Source: a bacterium (GTDB lineage Bacteria; Acidobacteriota; Blastocatellia; HR10). Taken from it: a stretch of DNA of 64,000 nucleotides. Below are positions 2,881 to 34,983 of the stretch, piece by piece. The translations under genes and the position numbers were made by a program. The notes under the pieces are model-generated. The model was not told where the DNA came from. It was given only the letters and a program-made list of their open reading frames with translations, and did no database searches. Within the stretch, counting starts at the first letter, position 1. Each line of letters opens with the position of its first letter. Where the stretch lies: assembly GCA_041640655.1 (NCBI GenBank), contig JBEPZV010000004.1, positions 46,815 through 110,814 on the forward strand. Reading direction: 5' to 3'.

Positions 2881-5800
2881 TCAGAACTCGATCCTCACCG
2901 TCTTGATCTCATACGGCTTGGTCGAGATGACCACTTCCTGTCCGTTCACAACGACGGGGCCGATCTCCCGCTCGATGAGATTCACCTCCGCAGCAGCTCG
3001 CGGAGGTTTCGGGAGCCTGATCTTCACGTCCGTCGGTTTTCCAGCGAATTCGTAGAACCTGAGGATCCACGCGTCGGAATCCTCGGCCTTCTTCAAAGCC
3101 GTGAGGACCACCGTGTTCGGTTCCACGCGAAGGAAGGAGTGGGCCGGCGGGAGCGAGCCGCTGTGTCCGTTCGTGGGATAAGGGATGAGCGGGTAGTTCA
3201 ATTCGTATCCCCGCTGTACGGTTCCCGCTTGGACCCAATCGCCCGCATGGGGGTAGATCGCGTACGTGAAGCGATGCCGACCTTCATCGGCGTGCGGATC
3301 CGGATAGGCCGGTGAGCGCAGGAGCGTCAGGCGGAGGACATTGTCGCGCACATCGTATCCGTACTTGCTGTCGTTGAGGAGGCTGACGCCATATGTTCCG
3401 TCGGAGAGATCGGCCCAAAAGAGCGCGGGGACTTCAAACTTCGCTTGCTCTTCGGGCGTGCGGCGCGTCGTCGGACGCGGGATCGCGCCAAACGGGATCT
3501 CGAACGTCGCCTTCGGGCTTCGCACGGCGACGGGGAACGCGACCTTCAGCAGGATATGTTTCTCGCGCCAATCCACCTCCATGTGGCACTCGAGCCGCGG
3601 AATCTTCGGATAGAGAATGAGATCCTGGATGAACGTCGAGCGCTGAAACCGCTTCACCACGCGGATCACGGCGCGCGTGGGACCGGTCTCCAGCACCTTC
3701 ACCTCCTCAGCCTGACGCAGCTCCCACATCTTCTCCTCGAAGTTCGCATCAATATTCCACGCGTCATAGACGGAGGGCTTGTCGTAAAATGTTTGCAGGA
3801 GATTTCCGCAGCGGGATTCGTCGAGCACCTCTCGGCGCGCCATCTTATCGTAGAGGCTCGTGAGGCATCCCGATCGGGCATCCACCGTGACTCGCAGGAA
3901 TTCGTTCTCCATCGTCAAGCCGGTGACCGAGAGCGAGGAGGGCACCGGCGATCGCCGAGCGACGGGAACGACACGGAAGACCTTGTATCCCAGCGGGGGG
4001 ACGTCCTCAGCGATGAAGCGGACCGTCGCACGGTTCGTCTCCGAATCCCGCGCGATCACTTCGGCGATGAGGCGTCGGCCTTGAGGATCGCGAACCTCGA
4101 CGTCCGAGACGGGATCCGGAAATGTGAGGGTGGCTTCGACCACATCCGTGCGCGCCCAGGAGAGGGGGTTGAAGACGATGAGGGGAAGTCCGGGGCCTCT
4201 CGTATTGATGCGATCGGCCAATTCCTTCAAGGCCTCATCCATGACTTCGCGCCCGATGCGTCGGACGTCCGCGTAATCCCGATCCGCATCCCGATAGACG
4301 GCGGCGATGCTGCTCCCCGGCAGGATGTCGTGGAATTGGTTGAAGAGCACTTTCTTCCAGGCCGCATCGAGATCATGCTGCGGATAGGGGCGTCCGAAGA
4401 GCCGTGCGAGCGAGGCGAACTTCTCGGCGTTGAGGAGCAGGACCTCGCTTTGACGATTATTCCGTTTCGTCGCGGCCTGACTCGTGTACGTGCCGCGATG
4501 GGTCTCCAGATACAACTCATCGCGCCAGACCGGTGGATTCAGGCGCGAGATCTCCGCCATCACGCGCTCGAAGAACTCATGCACGGTGCCGAAGAAGAGT
4601 CGCGGATAGAGCGCGTCGGTGGAGCGCCATTGGGCGGCTGTCTCCAACATGCTGCGCGTTGGCCCCCCGCCGTGATCCCCCACGCCATAAAGATGCATGT
4701 ACTCGCGATGGCCCGTCGCCGCCGTGTACTGGGCCAGGTCCCTGGCCATGGACACCGGCTCGATGGGGTTCCCGTAGTGGTTGGGGAAGTAGGTGAGGAC
4801 GCGGCTGCCGTCGGGAGCTTCCCACCAGAAGAGCCGATAGGGGAAGCGCGTGACTTCGTTCCAGAAGAGCTTCTGCGTGACGAAGAAGTCCATCCCCGAC
4901 TTCTTCAAGATCTGCGGCAGCTGCCAGTTGTAGCCGAAGGCATCCGGATTCCATCCGACGCGAATGTCCACGCCGAATTTCTCCTTGAAATATCGCGTTC
5001 CATGCAGGAACTGTCGGACGAGCGATTCGCCATGCGGCAGGTTCATGTCCGATTCGACCCAGACGCCGCCGACCACCTCCCATCGCCCCTCGCGCACGCG
5101 CTGTCGGATCTGCTCGAAGAGCTTCGGATACTTCTCCTCCATCCACGCATAGGTCTGAGCGGCTCCGTGCGTGAAGGTGAAGTCCGGGAATTCGTGCATC
5201 AGCTGAAGGACGGTGGAGAACGTATCGCGCACGATCTGGACCGTCTCCGTCCACGGCCAGAGCCAGGCCAGGTCAATATGGGAGTTCCCGACGGCGCGGA
5301 TCGCGAACTCTCGGAGCAAGGGGGCAATGGGCGTCAGGGCCTCGCGGGCCTCACGCAGCGAGCGATCGAAGGCGAGCTGATCGCCTCGATCCAGAGCGGC
5401 GAGGTCGAGCTTTCGAAGCGCGGCGTCCAGATGCGACTCCCATCGAGAGCGATCGTCCCGACGCGCGCTCAGCAGCTGCTCGGCCACTTGGCATTCCTGC
5501 AGAAACGTTCGGGGATCGGGGCGCGAAGGGGGAGCTTCGACTTCCAGCTGTCCGGCGCGCATCCATGTCCGCCCGCCAGGCACATCCGCTTTCACCGCGA
5601 TCACAAACGTATCTCCTGGACGCGCGCTCTCGGTCAGGACGACGGGATCCAGATCGTGCCCCTCCGCACGCTTCTCCCCGTTGAAGAAGACTGTGAGGTG
5701 GACCGGGTTCTCCCCCACGATGCGAAGGCGCAGACGGAGCCGCGCGCCGCGAATGTCGTACCCCCCAATCGTCTGAGGCAACGTTATGCGGTAGCGAAAC

Positions 5801-22637: not shown

Positions 22638-24530
22638 TCAGCGCCGGGCGTTCGGTGGGGGACAGGTCGCGAGGAAGAACCGTTCGCGCTTCCTCGCCTC
22701 CTCGTACTGCGCGCGCGCACGGCGCACCGCGTCCATCTCGGAGACCTCGGCCACGGGCACGTCCCACCACGATTCGTAGCCGGGGACGCGCACCTCTTTG
22801 TCCACCTCGACGACGATGACGGTCGTGCGCGCCTGCTGCCGGGCCTCCTCCAGGGCGCGCTCGAGATCGTCGCGCGTTCGGGCGCGAAGCGCGTGCGCGC
22901 CAAGGCTCGCGGCGTTCGCGGCGAAGTCCACTGGGATCCAGTCTCCATCCAGCTGTCCGGTCTGCGGATTGCGGAAGCGATAGTCCGTTCCGAACCCCCC
23001 TGAGCCGATGGACTGCGAGAGCCCGCCGATGCTGCTGAAGCCGTGATTGTCGAGCACGAGGATCACGAGCTTGTATCCCTCCTGCAGCGAGGTCACGATC
23101 TCCGAAGACATCATCAGGTACGAGCCGTCGCCCACCAGGACGTAGACCTCGCGCGAGGGGTCAGCCATCTTCACGCCCAGTCCACCGGCGATCTCGTAGC
23201 CCATACAGGAGTAGCCGTATTCGAGGTGATACCCCTTCGGATCGCGCGTGCGCCAGAGCTTATGCAGATCGCCCGGAAGGCTGCCAGCTGCGCAGACGAC
23301 GACATCGCGCGGACCGACGAAACGGTTGAGAATACCGATGACCTCGCTCTGCGCCATCGGCGGACCATGATGGAGATCGAAGAGGCGCTCGACTTCGGCC
23401 TCCCATTCCGCCTTCAGCCGCGCGATCTCCTCCGCATACTCCGCCGAGACGCGATGGCCCGCGAGCGCTTCCCGCAATTCCTCCAGCGTGAGGCGCGCAT
23501 CGGCCACCAGCGGCCACGCAGCCTGTTTGTACGCATCCATCTCGGCCACGTTGATCGTGATGAAGCGCACATCGGGATGTTGGAATGCCGTCTTTGAGGC
23601 CGTGGGGAAATCGCCCAGGCGCGTGCCGATGGCGATGATCAGGTCCGCCTCGCGGGCGATCACATTGGCCGCGCGCGTCCCCGTCACGCCGATGGCGCCG
23701 AGGTTCTGCGGATGGTCGAAGGGGAGCGAGCCCTTCCCCGCCTGGGTCTCGGCCACAGGAATCCCCGTTTGCTCGACGAAGCGCGCCAGCGCCTCGGTCG
23801 CTTCGCTGTAGATGACCCCGCCGCCGGCAATCACCAGCGGCCGTCGTGCTACGCGAATCCACGCGACGGCGCGGCGCAACCGTTCCCGATCGGCCGGAGG
23901 GCGGGGGATGTGCCAGACGCGCTTCTCGAACAACTCTTCCGGGTAGTCCCAAGCTTCCGTCTGTACATCCTGCGGGAGCGCGAGCGTCACCGCGCCCGTA
24001 TCGGCTGGCGAGGTCAAGACGCGCATCGCTTCCAACAGCGCGAAGGGGAGCTGATCCGGTCGGGTGAGGCGATCCCAGTAGCGGGAGACCGGTCGGAAGG
24101 CGTCGTTCACCGAGATGTCTTGCGTGTGCTCGGATTCCAGCTGCTGCAGCACGGGCGCGACGTTCCGGCGGGCGAAGATGTCCCCAGGCAGCAGCAACAC
24201 AGGCAATCGGTTGATCGTGGCCGTCGCCGCTCCCGTGACCATGTTCGTCGCTCCCGGACCGATCGAGGACGTGCAGGCGAAGGTCCGCAGCCGATTGTGC
24301 ATCTTGGCGAAGGCCACAGCGATGTGCACCATCGCTTGTTCGTTACGCGGCAGATAGTAGGGGAAGTCGGGGTTCTGCTGGAGCGCCTGGCCGATCCCCG
24401 CCACATTCCCGTGTCCGAAGATCCCCCACACCCCGGCGAAGAAGGGGATCTCACGCCCGTCGCGTTCCACATACTGGTTCTTCAAGAACGCAATAAGCGC
24501 TTGCGCCATCGTCAATCGCCGCCTTCTCAT
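22638..24530 (-). CDS. iolD: 3D-(3,5/4)-trihydroxycyclohexane-1,2-dione acylhydrolase (TPP-dependent)
   Basis: RLTMAQAL, GIFGHGNVAGIGQAL, SSIGPGATN, YHLEYGYSCMGYEIAGGLG, GDGSYLM and WWDVPVAEVS. Confidence 0.96.
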   Translation of the reverse strand: MRRRRLTMAQALIAFLKNQYVERDGREIPFFAGVWGIFGHGNVAGIGQALQQNPDFPYYLPRNEQAMVHIAVAFAKMHNRLRTFACTSSIGPGATNMVTGAATATINRLPVLLLPGDIFARRNVAPVLQQLESEHTQDISVNDAFRPVSRYWDRLTRPDQLPFALLEAMRVLTSPADTGAVTLALPQDVQTEAWDYPEELFEKRVWHIPRPPADRERLRRAVAWIRVARRPLVIAGGGVIYSEATEALARFVEQTGIPVAETQAGKGSLPFDHPQNLGAIGVTGTRAANVIAREADLIIAIGTRLGDFPTASKTAFQHPDVRFITINVAEMDAYKQAAWPLVADARLTLEELREALAGHRVSAEYAEEIARLKAEWEAEVERLFDLHHGPPMAQSEVIGILNRFVGPRDVVVCAAGSLPGDLHKLWRTRDPKGYHLEYGYSCMGYEIAGGLGVKMADPSREVYVLVGDGSYLMMSSEIVTSLQEGYKLVILVLDNHGFSSIGGLSQSIGSGGFGTDYRFRNPQTGQLDGDWIPVDFAANAASLGAHALRARTRDDLERALEEARQQARTTVIVVEVDKEVRVPGYESWWDVPVAEVSEMDAVRRARAQYEEARKRERFFLATCPPPNARR

Positions 24531-24583
24531 CGTCGGTGCCCTCCTTTCGCGCGATCGCCTCCGACGTCCGCGCCACGAGGCGC

Positions 24584-25597
24584 CTACAATCCCCCGCGCG
24601 CTTGGATGAATGAGAGGACTTCGGCTTCGTACGGCATGAAGTTCGCGCAGCCGTGGCGCGTGACGACGATCGCGCCGCAGGCATTACCCATGCGCGCCGC
24701 CCGATACCAGTCCCATCCCTTCAGATAGCCGTAGAGGAATCCGGCCGCGAAGGCATCGCCAGCCCCCAGGACATTGAGGACCTCGACGGGGAAGGCGGGC
24801 GCCGTGATCACTTCTCCGTGGGGCAGATGAACGGTCGCGCCCTCGGCCCCTCGTTTCACGACGAGCGCTCGCGGGCCGCGCTCCAGAAGCAGGCGAATGG
24901 CGTGGTCCAATTCGCCCGCGACGCGGGATTCGGAGACCTGCGCGTGCTCGATGTGGACCTCTCCGGCCTCCGCGAGAGCGGCCGCCTTCACCTCATCGGC
25001 CGTTCCGAGCACGACATCCACAAGCGGCAGCGCCAGGCGGATCGTCACCCCATAGGCCCGCACATCGTGCCAGAGCGGGGGGCGGAAATCCAGATCGAGA
25101 AAGACACGCACATCGTGGGCGCGCGCGCGCTCGGCGGCCAAGAGCGTCGCGCTGCGGCTCGGCTCTCGGCTGAGCCCCGTCCCGCTGATGAGCAAGACGC
25201 GACACTCGGGGATCGGCGCGGCGAGCACATCGTCAATGTCCAGTTCCATGTCGGCGCAGTTGTCGCGATAGTAGACCAGCGGGAAGCGATCCGGCGGCTC
25301 CACGCCGAGCAGGACAGCGCTCGTCCGACGCCCCGGCTTTCGCGGGATGAACCGCGTCTCCACACCCTCCCGTTCCAGGAACCGCAGGACGAAATCGCCC
25401 ACGAGATCGTCGCCGACGGCTGTGAGCAGCACCGCGCGCAAGCCCAATCGTCGCGCGCCCACACTGATGTTCGTCGGACACCCCCCCACATAGGCGGCGA
25501 AGCTGGTGATCTCCGGAAACGGCGCGCCGATGTCCGCCGCGTAGAGGTCAATCGAGCTGCGGCCCATGGCGAGGAGATCGTATTGCCGTTGGGGCAT
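24584..25597 (-). CDS. iolC: 5-dehydro-2-deoxygluconokinase
   Basis: MGRSSIDLY, YVGGCPTNI, YYRDNCAD, DLDFRP and VLNVLGAGDAF. Between iolB and iolD; start could also be 25627. Confidence 0.93.
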   Translation of the reverse strand: MPQRQYDLLAMGRSSIDLYAADIGAPFPEITSFAAYVGGCPTNISVGARRLGLRAVLLTAVGDDLVGDFVLRFLEREGVETRFIPRKPGRRTSAVLLGVEPPDRFPLVYYRDNCADMELDIDDVLAAPIPECRVLLISGTGLSREPSRSATLLAAERARAHDVRVFLDLDFRPPLWHDVRAYGVTIRLALPLVDVVLGTADEVKAAALAEAGEVHIEHAQVSESRVAGELDHAIRLLLERGPRALVVKRGAEGATVHLPHGEVITAPAFPVEVLNVLGAGDAFAAGFLYGYLKGWDWYRAARMGNACGAIVVTRHGCANFMPYEAEVLSFIQARGGL

Positions 25598-25623
25598 CCG
25601 CTCCTCCTCAATGTGCGCCCTGC

Positions 25624-26490
25624 TCATCGCACGAGCGGGACGCGCGGATCTTTCTCCGTCCATGTCGCGCGCACCCACGCGTGCGCCGGATCATCGGACG
25701 CCGCCATCGAGCGCGCGCTCCCGGCCAGAGCGTTCAAGTAGTACACGTTGTAGCCGTGCGCCGCGACGACCGGATGATACCCCTCCGGGATCAGCACCAG
25801 ATCCCCATCCTGAACGGTGAGAGTCACGTCCAACCGGCGATCCGGCGTGTAGATGCGTTGAATCGCGTACCCCTCCGGGCGATCCACCTTGTAATAGTAG
25901 ATCTCCTCCAGGTCCACTTCGTCCGGCGGATTGTGGACATCGTGCTTGTGCGGGGGATAGCTCGACCAGTTCCCGCTGGGCGTGTAGACCTCGACGAGCA
26001 TCAGGCGATCGGCGGGGAAATCCGGTGGGAGGATGTGATTGATCTGCCGCGTGGCATTCCCCCCGCCCCGAATCTCGATCGAGACGTCTTCTGGGCGGAT
26101 CAGCCGAGCGGGGAACATGCGCTCGGCGCGCGCTCGACAGAAGGCGAGTTCGCCCTCGGTCTCGGCCGTGATGGTGTAGGACGTGCCGATGGGGAGATAC
26201 AGAGCGGTCGGCAAGCCATCGAACACGTGTGCACGCGAGCCGATGTGAGACCACGAACCCGCCGAAGAGTGAATCGTGAAGCGCCCGCCCAAGAGCACAA
26301 TCCCCAGCTCGTCCCGCCCCGTCTCTCCCGAGACGGTCTCTCCAGCGGCCATGGCTCGAACGGCGAAGCCCAGATACTCGAAGCCCACGACCTCCGGCGT
26401 GATGGAGATGCGCTCGCCCGCCCCTCCATCGGAGGGGCGCGACCGGATCAGAAGCTCATGAGTACGCGACAGCATGCGAATTCTCCTCAT
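25624..26490 (-). CDS. iolB: 5-deoxy-glucuronate isomerase
   Basis: EVYTPSGNWSSYPPHKHD, LEEIYYY, GYHP and YYLNALAG. Confidence 0.95.
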   Translation of the reverse strand: MRRIRMLSRTHELLIRSRPSDGGAGERISITPEVVGFEYLGFAVRAMAAGETVSGETGRDELGIVLLGGRFTIHSSAGSWSHIGSRAHVFDGLPTALYLPIGTSYTITAETEGELAFCRARAERMFPARLIRPEDVSIEIRGGGNATRQINHILPPDFPADRLMLVEVYTPSGNWSSYPPHKHDVHNPPDEVDLEEIYYYKVDRPEGYAIQRIYTPDRRLDVTLTVQDGDLVLIPEGYHPVVAAHGYNVYYLNALAGSARSMAASDDPAHAWVRATWTEKDPRVPLVR

Positions 26491-27491
26491 CGAGGTGGGG
26501 CCGTCGAATGCCGAATGATCAGCTCGCCCTGCATCCAGATCGTCTGCTGCGAGTTCTCCCCTCTGAGGAGTTGCAGCAGTAGCTCCATCGCGCGCCGTCC
26601 CATCTGTCGCTTCGGCTGCCGGATCGTCGTCAGCGGAGGCTCCGTGTACGAGGCGATGAAGAGATCATCGAATCCCACGAGCGAGATGTCTTCCGGCACC
26701 CGAAGGCCTCTCATGCGGATCATGCGCAGCGCGCCGAGGGCCGTCATGTCGTTGTAACAGAAGACGGCCGTGGGAGGCGAAGTGAGCATCAGCAAGCGCT
26801 CCATCGCGCGCATTCCCTCCTCCGGCTTCCCATCGCCGTGGACGACCAGCTCCGGCTGAAACGTGAGCCCGGCGCGCTCGAGCGCCTGGCGGTATCCGGC
26901 GAAACGCTCAGTATCCGACTGATAGCCGAATTGATCGCCGATATACGCGATGCGCCGATGGCCGAGCTGAATCAGGTGATCGGTCGCGGCGCGGCTGGCC
27001 GTGACGTTATCAATCATGACCGAATGCACGAATTCCCCAGGATGCTGATTGTTGATGAGCACGATCGGGACCTTCATCTCGCTCAGGTGATCCATGTAGA
27101 GCGCACCGACGCGCGAGGCCGTCACCAAAATTCCATCCACGCGCCGCTCGTGGAAAGAGTGGACGACTTTGATCTCCCGATCCGGATCTGCATTGGAATT
27201 GGCCAGGAAGACCGAATAACCGTGATCGTTGGCCACCTCCTCGATTCCGCTGACCACCTCGGCGATAAACGGATCGGCGATCGTCGTGACGACGACGCCG
27301 ATGGTCTTCGTCTTGCGCGTGACTAAGCTACGGGCGACAGCGCTCGGCCGGTATCCCATCTCCTCAGCGATCCGGCGGATGCGCTCAGCCGTCTCACGGC
27401 GAACGAGGGGACTGTTGTGCAAGGCCCGTGAGACAGTCGAATGCGAGACCTTCGCCACGCGCGCGATGTCTTTGATCGAAACGGAGCTCAT
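26487..27491 (-). CDS. LacI-family transcriptional regulator
   Basis: SIKDIARVAKVSHSTVSRAL HTH, YRPSAVARSL hinge, VPEDISLVGFDD and PPLTTIRQP. Confidence 0.95.
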   Translation of the reverse strand: MSSVSIKDIARVAKVSHSTVSRALHNSPLVRRETAERIRRIAEEMGYRPSAVARSLVTRKTKTIGVVVTTIADPFIAEVVSGIEEVANDHGYSVFLANSNADPDREIKVVHSFHERRVDGILVTASRVGALYMDHLSEMKVPIVLINNQHPGEFVHSVMIDNVTASRAATDHLIQLGHRRIAYIGDQFGYQSDTERFAGYRQALERAGLTFQPELVVHGDGKPEEGMRAMERLLMLTSPPTAVFCYNDMTALGALRMIRMRGLRVPEDISLVGFDDLFIASYTEPPLTTIRQPKRQMGRRAMELLLQLLRGENSQQTIWMQGELIIRHSTAPPR

Positions 27492-27495
27492 AGGC

Positions 27496-27509
27496 TGCAC
27501 ACGTTTTCA
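27496..27509. promoter_or_regulatory. Putative LacI-type operator TGCACACGTTTTCA
   Basis: Imperfect palindrome TG-n4-CG-n4-CA with a central CG, typical of LacI-family sites, immediately upstream of the lacI start codon. Confidence 0.6.
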
Positions 27510-27592: not shown

Positions 27593-27620
27593 ATCATATC
27601 GCGGATCTCCACCTTGTCAA
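27593..27620 (-). promoter_or_regulatory. Sigma70-type promoter for the lacI-iol operon
   Basis: TTGACA (27615-27620), 16 bp, TATGAT (27593-27598) on the minus strand. Confidence 0.7.
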
Positions 27621-27634
27621 GATGGAAAAAATCA

Positions 27635-27662
27635 TTGACATTGCGAGGAATTCGGCTATAAT
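27635..27662 (+). promoter_or_regulatory. Sigma70-type promoter for the TPR-HTH/peptide cassette
   Basis: Perfect consensus TTGACA-N16-TATAAT. Confidence 0.8.
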
Positions 27663-27709: not shown

Positions 27710-29134
27710 ATGAGGACGACGAAGGTTCGAGAGATCGCGCTTTTGGAGCACGCCGTCTTCTCCGGTCGGTTTCGAGAGGCCGAGCGGCTGGCCGAGGAGT
27801 TCTCGCCGACCGATTTGCGGTCGGCGGCCGCGAAGGCTCAGGTTTTGATCTACAAGGGGGAGTTGGAGGAGGCCGGAGCGCTTCTGGAGGCCTTCGAGAA
27901 ACGGCTCACCGAAGCGAACCTCAAGGAGGCGGCCGAGTTCGGTCTGGCGAAGGCCGAGTGGCATTATTGGCGGGGCGAGTATGAGGAGGCAGAGCGGCAG
28001 GCGCAGGTGGTTTTCGGGATTTACAGCCTGAATCGCGATCGCTTCGGGCTGGCGCGCGCGCTCTACGTGCTCGGGCGGGTGCATCGGCGTCAGGGGGATT
28101 ACGAGCGGGCGCGACAAGAGATGCTTCAGGCGCTTGAGGAAGCTGAAGCGGTCACCGATCGGCCGACGGGATTTCTGCTTGGGCTCATCATGTTCAATCT
28201 CGGCGTGATCCATTACTTCCTGGGGGATCTCGCGCGCGCGGAAGAGGAGTTGCTGGCGGCGATCCGGGCGCTGGAGGACGAGCGGGGGCGGTACTACGGC
28301 AATGCCCTGAACTTCTATGGGACGTTGCTCATCGGGAAGGGACTGTATGAGGAGGCAGCGCGGATCATCCAGTCGGCCTACGAGTGCTTGTCCGAGAGCG
28401 CCTTCTTCGACGATTTGGCCCATGCGACGAACAATCTGGCCTATGCCTGTCTGCGCATGGGGCAATTTGAGCGCGCGTCGCGACTGCTCCATGAGAGCTT
28501 GGAGTTGCGCCGTCGGTCGAAGGACATCGCCGGAGAGTCGGCGACGCTGGAGCTCTTCGGGCGGCTTCGTTATGAGCAGGGACAACTGGGGGAGGCCGAA
28601 CAGATCCTGCGGCAAGCGATCGAGCTGGCGGAATTGGGGAAGAACCCTCATGAGAAGGCGGTCGCCTTGATCACCTTGGGGCGCGTGCTCATGGCTCAGG
28701 GGCGTCTGGACGAAAGCCAGCGGGCGCTTGAGGAGGCTCTTGATCTGGCCGTGCAGTTGAAGAACAAGTCGCTGCAGGCGGAGGGTCACGCCTATTTGGC
28801 GGAGCTGTGGGTCTATCGAGGCAACGGGATGCAGGCGTTGGAACATCTCAGGCGGACGAAGGCGTTCATCAATGGGCATCGCGATGCATATCTGCTCGCG
28901 CAGATTGAGCGCATTGAGCACTTGGTCCAGCAGCACCGGATCAAGGCCGAAGAGGGGGTCTTTATGATCCGCGGCAGCTTCCTACCGACTTGGCGGGAGG
29001 CGCATGAGATGTTGGGGAGGTTCCTTCTGGCGGAGGCGCTGCGGCATGCCGGTGAGAATCAGACGAAAGCCGCTGAGCTGCTCGGCGTCACTAAAGCCTA
29101 TATCACCATGCTGCGGAAGAAGTACGGGATCTGA
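27710..29134 (+). CDS. TPR-repeat protein with C-terminal Fis-type HTH (putative peptide-sensing regulator)
   Basis: At least 7-8 TPR-like repeats of about 40 aa (e.g. ALYVLGRVHRRQGDYERA, ATNNLAYACLRMGQFERA). C-terminal ALRHAGENQTKAAELLGVTKAYITMLRKKYGI. AAGGAGG RBS before ATG 27710. Confidence 0.88.
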   Translation: MRTTKVREIALLEHAVFSGRFREAERLAEEFSPTDLRSAAAKAQVLIYKGELEEAGALLEAFEKRLTEANLKEAAEFGLAKAEWHYWRGEYEEAERQAQVVFGIYSLNRDRFGLARALYVLGRVHRRQGDYERARQEMLQALEEAEAVTDRPTGFLLGLIMFNLGVIHYFLGDLARAEEELLAAIRALEDERGRYYGNALNFYGTLLIGKGLYEEAARIIQSAYECLSESAFFDDLAHATNNLAYACLRMGQFERASRLLHESLELRRRSKDIAGESATLELFGRLRYEQGQLGEAEQILRQAIELAELGKNPHEKAVALITLGRVLMAQGRLDESQRALEEALDLAVQLKNKSLQAEGHAYLAELWVYRGNGMQALEHLRRTKAFINGHRDAYLLAQIERIEHLVQQHRIKAEEGVFMIRGSFLPTWREAHEMLGRFLLAEALRHAGENQTKAAELLGVTKAYITMLRKKYGI

Positions 29135-29153
29135 TGAAGAGGAGGTGCGATCT

Positions 29154-29522
29154 ATGAAGAGGGTACTCGCGGTCGCGTTCATCGTGTTCATGCTCGGGAG
29201 TTTCACCCTCCCGGTGCGGGCGGGGGTCACAGCGGGTGGAAAGCCCTATGTGCCGGGCGCTGATCTCCCACTTGGAGGCGTCACGGCCGGAGGCCGACCG
29301 TTCATTGGCGGTGGCGGGGTCTTCACACCGACAGGATTCGGCTTGGGTGCTCAGTTCTATGATGACGAGGGATGGGATGCCGCATCAGATCCCTACGGGG
29401 GCATCGGTGGAGGAGCAGATCTCGGATGGGCACCCTCGTGGTCTTGGTGGGGATGGGGAGCGTGGGGCGTTCTCGACATCCTTTTCGGCATCCCGATGGC
29501 GTTCCTCTTCGCTATGTGGTGA
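29154..29522 (+). CDS. Small secreted Gly-rich protein (122 aa), putative signalling propeptide
   Basis: GAGGAGGT RBS. Sec signal peptide MKRVLAVAFIVFMLGSFTLPVRA, repeated GVTAGG(K/R)P(Y/F), and a Trp-rich hydrophobic C-terminus. Confidence 0.8.
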   Translation: MKRVLAVAFIVFMLGSFTLPVRAGVTAGGKPYVPGADLPLGGVTAGGRPFIGGGGVFTPTGFGLGAQFYDDEGWDAASDPYGGIGGGADLGWAPSWSWWGWGAWGVLDILFGIPMAFLFAMW

Positions 29523-29529
29523 GCGCCGT

Positions 29530-29559
29530 AGGGGGAATTCGCGAGAGCGAATCCCCCCT
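29530..29559 (+). terminator. Stem-loop after the peptide gene (probable terminator, between convergent genes)
   Basis: AGGGGGAATTCGC-GAGA-GCGAATCCCCCCT with one mismatch; weak U-tract. Confidence 0.6.
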
Positions 29560-29621
29560 GGAGCTTCTGCAGGGAGCCGTGGGATCTTTCGAGCGTCCCG
29601 CCGTGGGCTTCTCCCTGCTGC

Positions 29622-30707
29622 TCAGCCGGCGGTCTTCAAGCTGAAGGTGAACTCCGAACCTCTTCCGGGGTCGCTTCTGACAGTGATCTCCCCTCCGTGC
29701 AATTGGACGAGATGTTTCACAATGGCTAGGCCGAGGCCGCTGCCTCCCGTTTCCCGAGATCGAGATTTCTCGCCCCGATAGAAGCGCTCAAAGATACGCG
29801 GTTGGTCAGCCGGAGGAATGCCGATCCCGGTATCCGTGACGGCGACGAGGACGCGTTCACCGGAGCGGCGCGCCGTGATCCCCACATATCCTCCGGGCCG
29901 ATTGAACTTGATGGCGTTATCCAGGAGATTTTGCAGAATCTGCGTCAAGCGGAAGGGGTCGGCTAAGACTTGTATGTCCTCGGGGACGTCGTTCGCGATC
30001 GAGATGCCGCGCTCTTGCGCCTGAGGCCGGATGAGAGCTAAGACGTCTTCGACGAGGGCGCGAAGCGGAAGGGCTTCGAGCGAGAGGGCGATGACGCCCG
30101 ATTCGATCTCCGCCAGGTCGGTGATGTCGCGCACCAGGGCATGGAGGCGTTGGGCCTGTCGAAAGAGGCCCTCCAGGCATCGGCGCGCGTGCTCGGGATC
30201 CTCCAGGCCCACCTCCTGCAGGGTTTCCACATAGGCCAGGATCGCCGCCAGTGGCGTACGCAGTTCGTGCGAGAGATTGGCGAAGAAATCGCGCCGCACG
30301 CGCTCCAGATGCTCCAGCGCGGTGATCTCCACGAAGACGCCCAGAGCCGCCTGCGGTGCTTCAGAGGCGAAGCGAAGAGGAGTGATGGTGACATGGAACA
30401 CGCGGGGCTCGCCGCGCTTCAGCTCAAAGCGCAGCTCACGGGATGTCCCCAGATCGAGTGCCTCACGGAATCCCTCGTGCAATGCGGGATCGCGGGTGAG
30501 GTCAATCAGTCGAAGAGGGCGGGAGGGGATCGGAGGCGGGGGGAAGATGGATTCGGCCGACGGATTTTGAACGAGGACGGTCGTCTCCCGATCCACGATG
30601 AGCAGACCTTCGCGCATAGCCGCGAGGACGGCCTGCCACACCGGATGGGGCGAGCGAACTAACTCCCGAAGGAGATCGCGATCGGCGCTCTCGGTGGCGG
30701 GTGTCAC
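29622..30707 (-). CDS. phoR: Phosphate regulon sensor histidine kinase (PAS-HisKA-HATPase), no transmembrane segment
   Basis: ANLSHELRTPL H-box, NLLDNAIKF, DTGIGI, IFERFYR and GGSGLGL. Last gene of the pst/phoU/phoB operon. Confidence 0.88.
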   Translation of the reverse strand: MTPATESADRDLLRELVRSPHPVWQAVLAAMREGLLIVDRETTVLVQNPSAESIFPPPPIPSRPLRLIDLTRDPALHEGFREALDLGTSRELRFELKRGEPRVFHVTITPLRFASEAPQAALGVFVEITALEHLERVRRDFFANLSHELRTPLAAILAYVETLQEVGLEDPEHARRCLEGLFRQAQRLHALVRDITDLAEIESGVIALSLEALPLRALVEDVLALIRPQAQERGISIANDVPEDIQVLADPFRLTQILQNLLDNAIKFNRPGGYVGITARRSGERVLVAVTDTGIGIPPADQPRIFERFYRGEKSRSRETGGSGLGLAIVKHLVQLHGGEITVRSDPGRGSEFTFSLKTAG

Positions 30708-31414
30708 GGCGCTGCGTCGGAGGGATCGTTCGATCGCGGGCGGAATCGGTATCCGATGCCGACGACCGTCTCAATGTACGCCTCGTGCCCGAGCTTCTTC
30801 CGAAGATTGTGCACGTGGACGTCAAGCGTGCGCGTGGCTCCGGAATAGGCCAGGCCCCAGATGCGGTCCAGCAGATACTCGCGCGTGAGCGTTCGACCCG
30901 CATTGCGCGCCAGCAGCACCAGCAGCGCGAATTCCTTGCGCGTCAGCTTGATCTCGCGCCCTTCGACCCTCGCGATGAAATGCGTCGGGTCCAGATAGAG
31001 CGTGCCATCGTCGTAGAGGAAATCGAGGGGGGCATCCTCCTGCGCCCGTCGCAGCAACGCGTGCAGGCGCGCCTCCAGCTCGCGCAGGCTGAAGGGCTTG
31101 GTCACGTAGTCATCCGCTCCGAGCGTCAGGCCGAGGACCTTGTCCGATTCGCTCGTTCGAGCCGTGAGCATGAGGATGGGCAGGCGGCGCGTCGCGCTCT
31201 CCTGACGAAGGCGGCGGCACAGCTCGAAGCCGTTCATCTCCGGCAAGTTCACGTCCAGGATGAGCGCGCTCGGATGGCGCTGCGAGAGCGCCCGGAGCCC
31301 TTCCTCACCCGTGCGCGCGATCTCCACCGCATATCGCCCCCCCCGCTCCAGATGGTGCTTGAGGAGGTGGGCGAGTTCGACATCGTCCTCGATGATCAAG
31401 ATCGTCGGCTTCAT
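30704..31414 (-). CDS. phoB: OmpR/PhoB-family response regulator
   Basis: ILIIEDD, ILDVNLP, GADDYVTKPF, RTLDVHVHNLRKKL and TVVGIGYRF; located in the pho operon. Confidence 0.88.
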   Translation of the reverse strand: MKPTILIIEDDVELAHLLKHHLERGGRYAVEIARTGEEGLRALSQRHPSALILDVNLPEMNGFELCRRLRQESATRRLPILMLTARTSESDKVLGLTLGADDYVTKPFSLRELEARLHALLRRAQEDAPLDFLYDDGTLYLDPTHFIARVEGREIKLTRKEFALLVLLARNAGRTLTREYLLDRIWGLAYSGATRTLDVHVHNLRKKLGHEAYIETVVGIGYRFRPRSNDPSDAAP

Positions 31415-32085
31415 AGCTCCGGCCACTCGCGATGTTTGATCACTTCGCCTCGGGCCATGTAGACGATCTGCTCGCAGATGTTCGTCACGTAATCGGCGAT
31501 GCGCTCCAGATGCTTGATGATGAAGAGCAACTCCGCTCCTCGTCGCACGGTCGAGGGATCGGTGGCCATGAGGTGGATCAGTTCGTCATAGATGCGCTTG
31601 TAGAGCGCGTCGGCCTGGTCGTCATGTCGGATCGTCTCCAGGGCCTTCTCCGCATCATGGCTGGTGAACGCATCCAAGCCATCGAGCAGCATTTGCTGAA
31701 CGATCCGGGCCATCTCGGGAATGTCGAAGTAGACCTTCAACTGGGGCTCCTGGTTCAACCGGAGGACATGCCGGGCGATGTTCACCGCGTGGTCGGCGAT
31801 CCGCTCGATCGCCGGCGCCGTCTTCACCGCGGCGATCACGAAGCGCAGATCGGAGGCCGTCGGTTGGCGAAGCACGAGGATGTCAATGCACAATTCGTCC
31901 ACCTCGTTCTCCAACTGGTCAATCTTATCGTCATCGCGGATGACCTGTTCGGCCAGCTCCGAATCGCGTTCGACCAGAGCGCGGATCGCTTGAGCGATGG
32001 CTGTCTCCGCCCGCCCCCCGAGCATCAGGAGCTTGTCGCGCAGCCGATTCAAATCGTGATCAATCGGCCTGAGGTGATCGGTCAT
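31411..32085 (-). CDS. phoU: Phosphate signalling complex protein PhoU
   Basis: QPTASDLR, ERIADHAVNI and LERIADYVTNICE. Confidence 0.95.
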   Translation of the reverse strand: MTDHLRPIDHDLNRLRDKLLMLGGRAETAIAQAIRALVERDSELAEQVIRDDDKIDQLENEVDELCIDILVLRQPTASDLRFVIAAVKTAPAIERIADHAVNIARHVLRLNQEPQLKVYFDIPEMARIVQQMLLDGLDAFTSHDAEKALETIRHDDQADALYKRIYDELIHLMATDPSTVRRGAELLFIIKHLERIADYVTNICEQIVYMARGEVIKHREWPEL

Positions 32086-32108
32086 GATGACCTCTCCTTC
32101 CCTCGCCC

Positions 32109-32939
32109 TCATCCGAAGCGCCCCGTGAGATAATCTTCCGTCAGCTTCTCACGCGGCACCGTGAACAGTTTCTCCGTCTGGTTGAATTCTACAAGACGGC
32201 CCATCCAGAGGAAAGCCGTATAGTCGGAGACGCGGGCGGCCTGCTGCATGTTATGCGTGACGATGATGATCGTGTAGTGGCGCTTCAGTTCCGCGATCAG
32301 CTCTTCGATCTTCTCCGTGGCGATCGGGTCCAACGCCGAGGCCGGTTCATCCAGCAGCAGGACCTCCGGTCGCACGGCCAGGGCGCGGGCGATGCAGAGC
32401 CGCTGCTGCTGTCCGCCGGAGAGCGTGAGCGCGGATTCGTGCAGCCGATCCTTCACCTCGTCCCAGAGGGCGGCCTGCCGCAGGCTCTCTTCGACGCGCT
32501 CCTGCAGCTCCCGGCGATTGCGGACGAGCCCGTTCACGCGCAGGCCATACGCGACGTTCTCGAAGATCGTCTTCGGGAAGGGATTCGAGCGTTGGAAGAC
32601 CATCCCCACGCGCCGCCGCAAGCGCACGACGTCCACCTGGGGATCGTAGATGTTCTCTCCATCCAGCAGGATGCGCCCCTCGGCACGCGTATCCGGGATG
32701 AGGTCATTCATGCGATTGATGGCGCGCAGGAGCGTCGTCTTGCCGCATCCCGACGGGCCAATCAGAGCCGTCACCTGATTTCGGGGGAAACCCAGGGTGA
32801 TCTCGTGCAAGACGCGCACATCGCCGTAGTAGAAGCTGAACCGTTCGACTTGGACCTTCACAGGGAGAGAAGTCGTCTGAAGATCGGGAGCGCGTGCCGG
32901 CTCCCTGGCGGTCTCTCGGATCGTGCCAAACTTCACCAC
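32109..32939 (-). CDS. pstB: Phosphate ABC transporter ATP-binding protein
   Basis: [40 protein letters not shown] and YLTGRFG. GTG start after AAGGAGG (alternative start 32987). Confidence 0.95.
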
Positions 32940-32983
32940 CGTTCTCCTCCTTGCCGATGAGATCGCATCGTCGCCGCTCCGGA

Positions 32984-34024
32984 TCACGCGCGGAGTCGTC
33001 GCCGAACGCGGGCGCGGATGAGGACGCCGACCGTGTTGAGCGCGAACGTGAGCGCGAGCAGGACCAGGACGGTCCCGTAGAGCAAGGGCTTGGTCTTCTC
33101 CACATCGGGAGACTGCGTCGAGAGGATGAAGACGTGATAGCCAAGTTCCATGAACTGGTCGTTCAAGCGGCTCGGCAGATAGGGGAGGAAGTACGCAGCG
33201 CCCGTGAAGAGGACCGGGGCGACTTCTCCCGCTCCTCGACTCACGGCGAGGATGGCCCCGGTGAGAATCCCGGGCAGCGCTTCCGGCAGGACGATGTGCC
33301 AGATCGTCTGCCAGCGCGTGGCGCCGAGCGCCAGACTCGCTTCACGCAGCTCGCGGGGCACGGCGCGCAATGCTTCATCGGTGGAGACGATCACCACCGG
33401 AAGCGTGAGCAGAGCGAGCGTCAGCGCCGCCCAGAGGATGGCCGGTTGTCCGTAGGTCAGCTCGCCGCCGTAGAAGAGCCGATCTATGCTTCCCCCGATG
33501 AACTGCACGAAGAATCCGAGTCCGAAGAGGCCGAAGACGATCGAGGGGACGCCCGCCAGGTTGTTGACGGCCGCGCGCGTCGCTCGAGCGAAGAGGATCT
33601 CCACGACGTGCCCAAACCCGATCAAGCGCTCTCGCCACCGGCGAGCCGCGCGCGCGCGCGCCCAGGCGTAGGCGAGGTTCGATCCCGGCACGAACTCGCG
33701 GAGATAGACCGCCGTGGCCACACCGATCGGGACGGCGGCGATGGTCATCAGGATGACGAGCGCGACGGTCCCGAAGATCGCCGGGAAGATCCCTCCCTCG
33801 GTCATGCCCGCGCGCGGCGCTGTGGTCAGGAACTCCCAACTGAGCTGTCCGATCCCATTCCACACAATGTTCCCGAGGATGATGCCGAGCATCGCGACAA
33901 TCAGCGAGCTGGCCAGTGCGAGCAAACCAATGGGGACCTGTTCGCGAAAGCGCTCCCAGAAGATCTCCCACCGCGAGGCGATGAGCGAGGCAGAGGGGCT
34001 TTCGACGCGCGGAGTGACGTTCAT
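32984..34024 (-). CDS. pstA: Phosphate ABC transporter permease PstA
   Basis: [33 protein letters not shown] and [11 protein letters not shown] overlaps the pstC stop. Confidence 0.93.
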
Positions 34025-34983
34025 ATCTCTCCTCGCAAGCGGCGTTGCACGCGATGGATGATGTACACGCCCGCGGAGTTCACCGCGAACGTGACGACGA
34101 ACAACAGCGCTCCGATGAAGAAGAGCACATGATAGTGCGGGCTGCCGAAGACGACCTCGCCTAATTCCGCCGCGATCGTCGCCGCCAGCGTGCGCACGGA
34201 ATCGGTGAAGCGCCAGGACGTGATCGCCGCGTTGCCCGATGCCATCAGCACGATCATCGTCTCCCCCACGGCACGGCCGAAGCCCAAGACGAGGCTGGCG
34301 AAGACGCCCGGCAAAGCGGCCGGGAGCACGACGCGCGTCGCCGTTTGCCAGCGCGTGGCGCCGAGCGCCAGACTCGCCTCCCGAAGACTCCGCGGGACGG
34401 CATTCAACGCATCTTCGCTCACGGTGTAGATGATCGGGATCAGTGCCAACGCCAGTGCCGTCCCCGCCGTGATCGCGTTCAAGCGCGTCTCGAATCCGAA
34501 GAGGCGGTGCATCCATGTCGCCAGGACGATCAACGCGAAGAATCCGAGAACCACCGAGGGGATGCCGGCCAGAAGCTCAATGGCCGGTTTGATCAGCTCC
34601 CGTATCCTCGATGGCGCGAATTCCGATGTGTAGAGCGCGGCGGCGATGGCCAAGGGCGCCGCGATCCCGAGCGCCACGAGCGTCGTCTTCAATGTCCCCA
34701 GGATGAGCGGAATGAGGCTGTATTTGGGCACGAGCGCCACGGGCTGCCACATGTATCGGCTCGCCAGATCGGGCCCCTCCATCGGATGGAAGAAATGGCG
34801 CAGGCTCGCTTCCCGCTGGATCTCGGGATCGGTCAGAATCGGCAGCGCTTCTCGAAAGATGAAGATGAAGATAAGGACGATCGTCACGATCGCCGTGAGC
34901 GAGAGCATGAAGATCACCCGGTGCGCCCATCGGTCGATCCAACGGCGCCAGCGTTCCTGCCGTGCGTCCCGACCCTCACGCAT
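34021..34983 (-). CDS. pstC: Phosphate ABC transporter permease PstC
   Basis: ELLAGIPSVVLG, SEDAL and GRAVGETMIVLMASGN. Confidence 0.93.
   Translation of the reverse strand: MREGRDARQERWRRWIDRWAHRVIFMLSLTAIVTIVLIFIFIFREALPILTDPEIQREASLRHFFHPMEGPDLASRYMWQPVALVPKYSLIPLILGTLKTTLVALGIAAPLAIAAALYTSEFAPSRIRELIKPAIELLAGIPSVVLGFFALIVLATWMHRLFGFETRLNAITAGTALALALIPIIYTVSEDALNAVPRSLREASLALGATRWQTATRVVLPAALPGVFASLVLGFGRAVGETMIVLMASGNAAITSWRFTDSVRTLAATIAAELGEVVFGSPHYHVLFFIGALLFVVTFAVNSAGVYIIHRVQRRLRGEI

Follow-up and report, generated by a model that had tools for sequence, protein, structure and literature searches.

A twin-motif exported protein encoded beside a tetratricopeptide-repeat regulator in Blastocatellia: a candidate peptide ligand precursor

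Introduction

Peptide signals that are read by cytoplasmic tetratricopeptide-repeat (TPR) receptors are regarded as characteristic of Firmicutes and of the mobile elements of these bacteria, and it is from Firmicutes that RRNPPA systems are reported, in the excerpts consulted of PMC9765709 and PMC10075063. In such systems, as set out in the excerpt consulted of PMC11343458, a propeptide of 50-120 amino acids is encoded beside its receptor and exported by the Sec pathway, after which signal peptidase and further proteases trim it; Opp brings the resulting peptide back into the cell, where the TPR domain of the receptor binds it, and a single propeptide sometimes holds one to four copies of the pheromone. 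The gene pair considered here has a similar layout and comes from a member of the Acidobacteriota (Blastocatellia, HR10). It lies in a stretch of 64,000 nucleotides (GenBank assembly GCA_041640655.1, contig JBEPZV010000004.1, positions 46,815 to 110,814), referred to as the window, and all coordinates below are those of the window unless another locus is named. The pair comprises a gene for a TPR-containing regulator (27710-29134, + strand) and a small open reading frame (ORF) of 122 codons that follows it on the same strand (29154-29522).

A first-pass annotation, made from the letters of the window, had described the product of the small ORF as a propeptide with a duplicated nine-residue motif, conserved at the protein level and not at the DNA level, and with a C-terminal membrane anchor, from which several copies of a peptide could be released. 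The observation as described is confirmed, and the interpretation attached to it is partly supported. We consider the chances about even that the small protein is the exported ligand precursor of the adjoining regulator, which would make the cassette functionally RRNPP(A)-like in a diderm phylum. That reading is built on the reality of the small gene, its export signals, the conservation and matched change of its twin motif, its constant pairing with the regulator and the Rap-like shape of the predicted sensor.

Results and discussion

The small ORF is a constrained gene with export signals

The small ORF is a real, constrained gene. It starts 19 nt past the stop codon of the regulator gene, and a Shine-Dalgarno sequence, AGGAGG (29140-29145, + strand), lies 8 nt ahead of its ATG; GGAGG-type sites also precede most of its orthologues and relatives. 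The ratio of nonsynonymous to synonymous divergence (dN/dS) was estimated from 12 of the 14 orthologues of the genus, the near-duplicates L092 and L095 being excluded, and was 0.175 for the whole ORF at a synonymous divergence (dS) of about 1. The signal peptide (0.39), an acidic linker (residues 73-91, 0.23) and the tail (0.20) gave the higher values. The first motif copy (residues 24-33) gave 0.074, the spacer 0.042, the second copy (residues 42-51) 0.092 and residues 52-72 0.087. Motif conservation and dN/dS across orthologues had been proposed as a check by the first-pass annotation, and the constraint found is strong. As constraint is just as strong in the spacer and over the 21 residues after copy 2, the conserved unit within the genus is a segment of about 50 residues and not two isolated 9-mers.

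The predicted Sec-type signal peptide (29154-29222, residues 1-23) starts with M-K-R and has a basic n-region, a hydrophobic core with Kyte-Doolittle 19-residue means of up to 2.03, the residues V-R-A at positions -3 to -1 and no lipobox Cys. These features, with small residues at both -3 and -1, are those of a substrate of Sec and signal peptidase I, the cleavage site being judged by the -3/-1 rule alone. The same site had been predicted at the outset, and it is conserved in relatives: Ala at -1 is invariant in 17/17 aligned family members, in which a small-x-Ala site is followed by the motif. Cleavage after V-R-A would place the first copy of the motif, GVTAGGKPY (29223-29249, residues 24-32), at the mature N-terminus. 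The second copy, GVTAGGRPF (29277-29303, residues 42-50), begins 18 residues after the first and is directly preceded by Gly.

The rest of the protein consists of a Gly-rich and acidic middle that is predicted to be disordered (29304-29456, residues 51-101) and a Trp/Phe-rich hydrophobic C-terminal helix (29457-29519, residues 102-122), which has an embedded L-D and a final Trp, and no basic tail. In the C-terminal segment, windows of 19 residues that begin at residues 102-104 have Kyte-Doolittle means of 1.72-1.86. AlphaFold2 modelled the small protein with a pLDDT of 58; helices were confident only at residues 2-16 and 103-121 (block pLDDT 71-80 in the latter), and the middle of the protein had a pLDDT of 42-55, with 42-47 per ten-residue block in residues 51-101. 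Scans of the small protein against Pfam and NCBIfam (the latter at E up to 1) returned 0 families, and a Protein Atlas search gave no usable match. A C-terminal sorting signal (PEP-CTERM, GlyGly-CTERM, LPXTG and the like) was considered and rejected: there was no match to an NCBIfam model, and the terminus has no basic cluster.

The two motif copies change together between lineages

In the window protein the two copies are identical at 7/9 residues, differing by K/R and Y/F. Six of the seven identical residues are encoded by different codons, Val alone having the same codon (GTC) in both, and the copies share 18/36 bases over 12 aligned codons; both the positions and the codon usage are as first described. 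A 9-mer self-match with at least seven identities arose in 20/2000 shuffles of the mature sequence, and in this one protein alone the twin motif is suggestive, not compelling. The repeat can be regarded as solid because it recurs in relatives with other motif sequences. GADL, which had also been pointed out as occurring twice, is indeed found at residues 35-38 and 87-90, but the pair is not retained in orthologues; it was therefore attributed to chance and rejected as a second repeat.

The family of small proteins is tiny and is unnamed in databases. Searching a word-indexed database yielded 8 clusters at 67-97% identity, and a profile built from 17 members found 12 clusters in the same database and 20 representatives, about 19 of them true, when run against 1.84 billion entries. 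Near relatives are recorded as the hot-spring 'bacterium HR08/HR10' and as metagenome-assembled genomes of Blastocatellia. With the small protein as the query, 8/41 genomes were matched; the divergent cassettes of sister families were found through synteny. The members have a common build: a signal peptide ending in small-x-Ala, the motif at the N-terminus that cleavage is predicted to create, a stretch rich in Gly and Ser and a hydrophobic, aromatic C-terminal end. Of 41 proteins, 33 end in an aromatic residue, 30 have an acidic residue within the last 20 and only 4 have a basic one (K/R) within the last five. The proposed membrane anchor is supported as far as the hydrophobic C-terminal helix goes; the tail may not span the membrane in every member, the maximal 15-residue hydropathy ranging from 0.78 to 2.20 across the 41 proteins.

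Copies were compared in 40 distinct proteins, a count from which P0029 (judged a false match) and P0022 (a fragment) were left out. A second copy with at least 6/8 identical residues is present in 30/40, lying 17-20 residues downstream of the first (30 residues in one protein); the remaining ten comprise two proteins with a degenerate first copy (P0014 and P0027), three with a single copy and five short forms of 55-69 amino acids with one copy. Among the 30 twin-copy proteins there are 12 variant classes, which follow the pattern [G/R/N]-x-[T/S/G]-x-[G/A/T]-G-[K/R]-P, with Val, Gln, Glu or Asp at position 2 and Ala, Met, His or Asn at position 4. Over the first six positions, the two copies of a protein are identical in 71/72 class-level comparisons, and cross-class pairs agree at 2.71/6; the agreement within own pairs is partly circular, the pairs having been selected by similarity, but this reservation does not touch the finding of 12 different matched pairs. 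Agreement between copies is seen at positions 1-6 and 8 in 28-29/29 proteins. The mid-motif position 7 agrees in 13/29, and 16/29 proteins pair a K with an R.

At the DNA level, most synonymous sites are different between the copies, in the window and in distant relatives alike; thus the copies have 21/30 bases in common in L008 and 16-17/30 in L052 and L053. The change from Ala to Met at position 4 is found in both copies of two non-sister lineages: in a regulator tree of 15 rows, which does not include locus L049 of G003, the Met-bearing L094 is sister to the Ala-bearing L093 with a support of 100/99. The codons flanking Met in L094 differ between its copies. In L007 a stretch of 14 bases is identical in both copies, and a short conversion may have taken place in this lineage. 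Because position 7 has not been homogenised, synonymous sites differ and Met occurs in two non-sister lineages, selection, and not gene conversion, is taken to keep the copies matched. Overall, the copies are held alike by selection while the pair drifts between lineages. The earlier proposal that selection acts on the peptide, as opposed to recent slippage, is borne out by the dN/dS of 0.07-0.09 in the copies, the dS of about 1 and the synonymous differences between copies, and its companion idea, that the motif might define pherotypes, gains weight from the 12 variants in relatives, each matched in both copies.

In 22/23 distinct N-terminal regions copy 2 comes directly after a G, S or A, so that each of the two copies has a small residue in front of it. 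A protease site might need this, but the point is purely observational. A G-H-T core is common to a phage Rap pheromone, as given in the title of a PDB entry, and to the motif of one sister lineage, and was taken as a coincidence.

The small ORF is constantly paired with a TPR regulator

A match to the regulator (E up to 1e-60) was found in 12/12 genomes of the order, and in 12/12 the small ORF then follows on the same strand. Among 12 metagenome loci with a group-1 regulator (at least 45% identity), the small ORF comes next in ten, and in the other two the contig breaks off less than 210 nt past the regulator. Beyond the pair the downstream genes change from one lineage to the next, and the conserved unit is therefore the pair itself. 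In three divergent loci, L052, L053 and L101, the 80-100 nt between the two genes hold a conserved non-coding block, which might act as promoter, operator or RNA element.

The regulator has 474 amino acids when read from ATG 27710, which has a GGAGG 3 nt upstream. Its orthologues begin at the Met corresponding to this codon, which is most likely the true start. The start taken mechanically for the ORF, GTG 27668, 6 nt past the -10 box, is unlikely to be used; this codon falls within the expected 5' end of the transcript. About ten TPR pairs are recognised in the protein (Pfam TPR_12, 1.1e-27; TPR_MalT, 1.5e-20), followed by a C-terminal three-helix helix-turn-helix (HTH) that matches the Fis-type HTH_8 at 15.8 bits, below the cut-off of 22. 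There is no signal peptide or N-terminal hydrophobic segment. Databases label the regulator 'hypothetical' or 'tetratricopeptide repeat protein'. The AlphaFold2 model (pLDDT 89.9, pTM 0.81) is all-helical over residues 35-424, and the helices of the HTH occupy residues 442-486.

The regulator model was compared with known structures. The top Foldseek matches were peptide-binding TPR proteins, namely LGN/Pins, consensus TPR, OGT, APPBP2, Rap and NprR. By Z-scored structural alignment, the top seven chains were all Rap receptors crystallised with Phr peptides, including 4gyo_B (Z 31.8, rmsd 3.8, 346 residues aligned), 8rsv_B (31.6), 4i9c_A (31.6) and 8rte_A (30.0). The next scores were those of APPBP2 (29.4), NprR (29.3), domain III of MalT (28.8), APC and LGN (about 27) and AimR (about 23.5). 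As long TPR superhelices are all alike and the margin is a few Z units, the structure indicates that the regulator is Rap-shaped, not that it is a Rap homologue.

With regard to a possible re-import of the Opp type, three SBP_bac_5 (Opp/Dpp-type binding) proteins scored above the cut-off in the genome, a statement of presence only, such proteins being found in 11/14 control genomes as well.

Transcription signals and gene neighbourhood

The source assembly comprises 3.13 Mb in 128 contigs and is 89.8% complete. Upstream of the regulator gene lies a promoter-like site, TTGACA-16 nt-TATAAT (27635-27662, + strand), that matches the consensus at 12/12 positions; the region holds two promoter-like sites, whereas shuffles lead one to expect 0.4. 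The two are near-consensus and stand back to back (27593-27662), the 12/12 site pointing toward the regulator and an 11/12 site toward a divergent LacI-type gene (26487-27500). The promoter scan gave no such site in the gap that separates the small ORF from the regulator gene.

A G+C-rich hairpin without a T-run (29530-29559, assigned to neither strand) lies between the small ORF and a convergent histidine-kinase gene. The folding energy of 29515-29585 is -32.3 kcal/mol (z -2.44), and 4/200 shuffles folded equally well; a scan of the region for intrinsic terminators found none.

On one side of the pair (22638-27500) are inositol catabolism-like genes and the LacI-type regulator. On the other (29622-34983) are genes for a Pho-type kinase and response regulator, PhoU and a Pst transporter, all on the minus strand.

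Comparison with described peptide receptors

Two features of RRNPP(A) systems are found here, a cytoplasmic protein with a TPR superhelix and an adjoining small gene whose product has a Sec signal peptide; another, an N-terminal XRE-type HTH or the three-helix bundle of Rap, is absent from the regulator. As its HTH is C-terminal and of Fis type, so that the domain order is reversed, the cassette is best described as RRNPP-like and not as a member of the group. A literature search for RRNPP in connection with Acidobacteria found nothing, and broader searches found only work on Firmicutes.

The Rap-Phr systems of Bacillus and its phages, which include tandemly duplicated Phr (excerpt consulted of PMC11343458), resemble the present cassette in several respects. 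They likewise pair a TPR receptor with an adjoining gene for a Sec-exported propeptide, they likewise can have more than one copy of the motif and a motif that diversifies between lineages, and the Rap fold is the best match to the regulator model (Z 31.4-31.8). Rap nevertheless lacks a DNA-binding domain and has proteins as its targets, a membrane helix is missing from Phr propeptides, and no sequence relation between Rap and the regulator described here was detectable. The excerpt consulted of PMC9765709 places Rap-Phr in Firmicutes only.

In NprR-NprX and PlcR-PapR, as here, a cytoplasmic transcription factor with HTH and TPR domains is followed by a propeptide gene on the same strand, and NprR is structurally similar to the regulator (Z 29.3). 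The HTH of NprR and PlcR is N-terminal and XRE-type, whereas that of the present regulator is C-terminal and weakly Fis-type. The active peptide of these systems is the C-terminal end of a propeptide of 40-50 amino acids. Unlike the NprX and PapR propeptides, the protein described here has its motif at the mature N-terminus of 122 amino acids that end in a hydrophobic helix.

Proteins of the MalT/AfsR type also combine DNA binding with a superhelical TPR sensor (MalT domain III, Z 28.8), and AfsR and MalT were matched at about 1e-9 in a PDB profile search with the regulator. They differ in having an ATPase module, in responding to small-molecule binding or phosphorylation and in having no partner peptide gene.

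Paralogous regulators and their small ORFs

The first-pass annotation had suggested a search of the genome for paralogous cassettes. With the small protein as the query none was found in the same genome; there are, however, two paralogous regulators on another contig, with 36% and 31% identity, and the first of these is accompanied by a different small ORF. In 14/14 loci examined, an ORF of 30 codons lies 185-390 nt downstream of the 36% paralogue. This ORF has a strong AAAGGAGG site, and its product is a hydrophobic helix with a variable 9-mer, L-D-x-G-V-x-x-G-G, at its end; the variable columns of the ORF number 12, 5 and 20 at codon positions 1, 2 and 3, respectively. The genome's own copy is in locus L010 (G000:C40:6066-10448), on the minus strand, about 196 nt past the paralogous regulator. 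The 30-codon ORF looks like a short hydrophobic propeptide. In size and layout it resembles the short hydrophobic propeptides of Rgg-SHP systems, from which the present cassette differs in the architecture of the regulator.

In other lineages, regulators of the same paralogue group are followed by proteins of 55-93 amino acids with a signal peptide, a motif and a hydrophobic tail, one of which has two copies of its own motif 30 residues apart. The regulator family therefore appears to pair with small peptide genes more generally. Neither near the 31% group nor near more distant homologues of the regulator (about 30% identity; L017, L018 and group 3, L117-L124) did a signal-peptide heuristic find a small ORF, which is not proof of absence.

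Two further observations concern these relatives. A 7-4-7 palindrome, exact in L107 and near-exact in L055, lies about 108 nt before the 55-aa small ORF of the paralogue cassette, just upstream of an extended -10-like box, and is a candidate operator for the adjoining regulator. In L016 (G008), on the strand opposite to the regulator (3215-3583 of that locus, + strand), there are tandem ORFs of 74 and 46 amino acids with near-identical C-terminal regions of about 35 residues, in which a hydrophobic stretch leads into a Cys-containing tail.

Alternative explanations

Several observations weigh against the proposal that the small protein is a ligand precursor. Known pheromones are usually located at the C-terminus of their propeptides, and these propeptides have no membrane helix. 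The host is diderm, and literature searches found no cytoplasmic receptor with an exported peptide ligand in outer-membrane bacteria. Constraint within the genus covers the first 50 mature residues as a whole, the 9-mers being no more constrained than their surroundings. On the side of the regulator, Rap outscores unrelated TPR proteins by a narrow margin (Z 31.8 versus 29.4 for APPBP2), and the best 60 of 141 matches in the PDB profile search were generic TPR proteins only, with no RRNPP chain among them. Pfam gave no RRNPP-specific family in the regulator at E up to 0.1, dedicated RRNPPA profiles not having been used. The regulators of the two Met-variant lineages have residues in common at 3 columns (180, 397 and 421), compared with 0-3 columns for other non-sister pairs. 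Evidence of transcription comes from the contigs of one metatranscriptome library (X20), which cover the whole stretch and include a 1079-nt contig spanning 29044-29700 with 22 differences; neither strand nor transcript ends are visible in such contigs, and the coverage is a weak hint of transcription because RNA-library contigs may contain DNA. Finally, the motif of most lineages contains Asp or Glu together with His, which would also suit a metal site or a partner site.

This last point bears on a rather unlikely explanation, in which the small protein acts in the envelope in its own right as a disordered periplasmic tether. Its twin motif would bind a two-fold symmetric partner or a metal, and the regulator would only control its expression or merely be co-transcribed with it. 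In most lineages each copy has an acidic residue with a His two positions further on, and two copies would thus supply four ligands; the conservation of the N-terminal 50 mature residues in the genus and the retention of the C-terminal helix in all members also agree with an envelope role. In the window genus and several others, however, the acidic residue and the His have been replaced in both copies (by Val or Gln, and by Ala, Met or Asn, respectively), and dN/dS is still 0.07-0.09. A fixed metal site fits poorly because both ligand residues are replaced while constraint stays strong. No other neighbouring gene is conserved between lineages, those downstream being different, and the Rap-like regulator is left as the only constant partner. 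It is less probable still that the signal resides in the hydrophobic C-terminal helix, which intramembrane proteolysis would release in the manner of the short peptides, likewise hydrophobic, that Rgg- or PrgX-type receptors detect, with the twin motif governing processing or stability. A hydrophobic helix with an acidic residue, often as L-D, is common to all the small ORFs beside this regulator family, including the 30-codon ORF, which lacks an N-terminal motif and whose variable residues fall within its last nine positions. Within the 122-aa family, by contrast, the tail has a dN/dS of 0.20 against 0.07-0.09 for the motif, and the matched change of the copies would go unexplained if the motif were a mere processing handle.

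A precursor of a ribosomally synthesised and post-translationally modified peptide (RiPP), or of a bacteriocin, with two core copies would account for a small, secreted, Gly-rich protein with repeated cores, and the regulator does match the NCBIfam model of a TPR protein from a cyclophane RiPP pathway. That match scores 81 bits against a cut-off of 1125 and reflects generic TPR similarity, and there is no modifying enzyme, dedicated transporter or immunity gene nearby; the neighbours are of LacI-type, inositol catabolism and Pho/Pst function and are unconserved between lineages. An origin of this kind is very improbable. Hardly credible is a repeat without a role, left as a neutral relic of an old duplication or maintained by recurrent gene conversion. 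The 14-base identity in L007 could be a short conversion tract, but synonymous sites are near saturation while residues 1-6 are identical, position 7 agrees in only 13/29 proteins, and dN/dS in the copies is 0.07-0.09.

Conclusions

If the small protein is the ligand precursor of the adjoining regulator, the cassette might work as follows. The regulator and the small ORF would be co-transcribed from a single strong promoter. The small protein would be exported by Sec and cut after V-R-A, which would leave copy 1 at the new N-terminus, and the C-terminal helix would keep it at the inner membrane. Periplasmic proteolysis would then release one or two motif-bearing peptides, which would be re-imported by an Opp-type transporter and bind in the groove of the TPR superhelix of the regulator, altering the action of the C-terminal HTH on DNA. 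Cleavage, release, uptake, binding and the effect on transcription are steps that we infer. The matched copies would find an explanation in this scheme because both would have to fit one receptor pocket; they would stay matched within a protein while the motif drifts between lineages, giving rise to pherotype-like variants.

In its broader form the proposal is plausible at somewhat less than even probability. It holds that Blastocatellia of hot springs and groundwater evolved a peptide-pheromone system independently of Firmicutes, with Rap-shaped TPR regulators that carry a C-terminal HTH and each have their own exported peptide gene. The ligand at the present locus would come from a membrane-tethered propeptide with two receptor-matched copies, of which selection for matched change would have produced at least 12 pherotype-like variants.

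If this is true, peptide communication would have evolved convergently in a diderm phylum, with a reversed domain order in the receptor. The cassette may alternatively serve self-sensing of the periplasm, and either meaning raises the question of how the peptide crosses or bypasses the outer membrane. The matched change of the two copies, with Ala, Met, His or Asn at one position of the motif, amounts to a natural specificity series.

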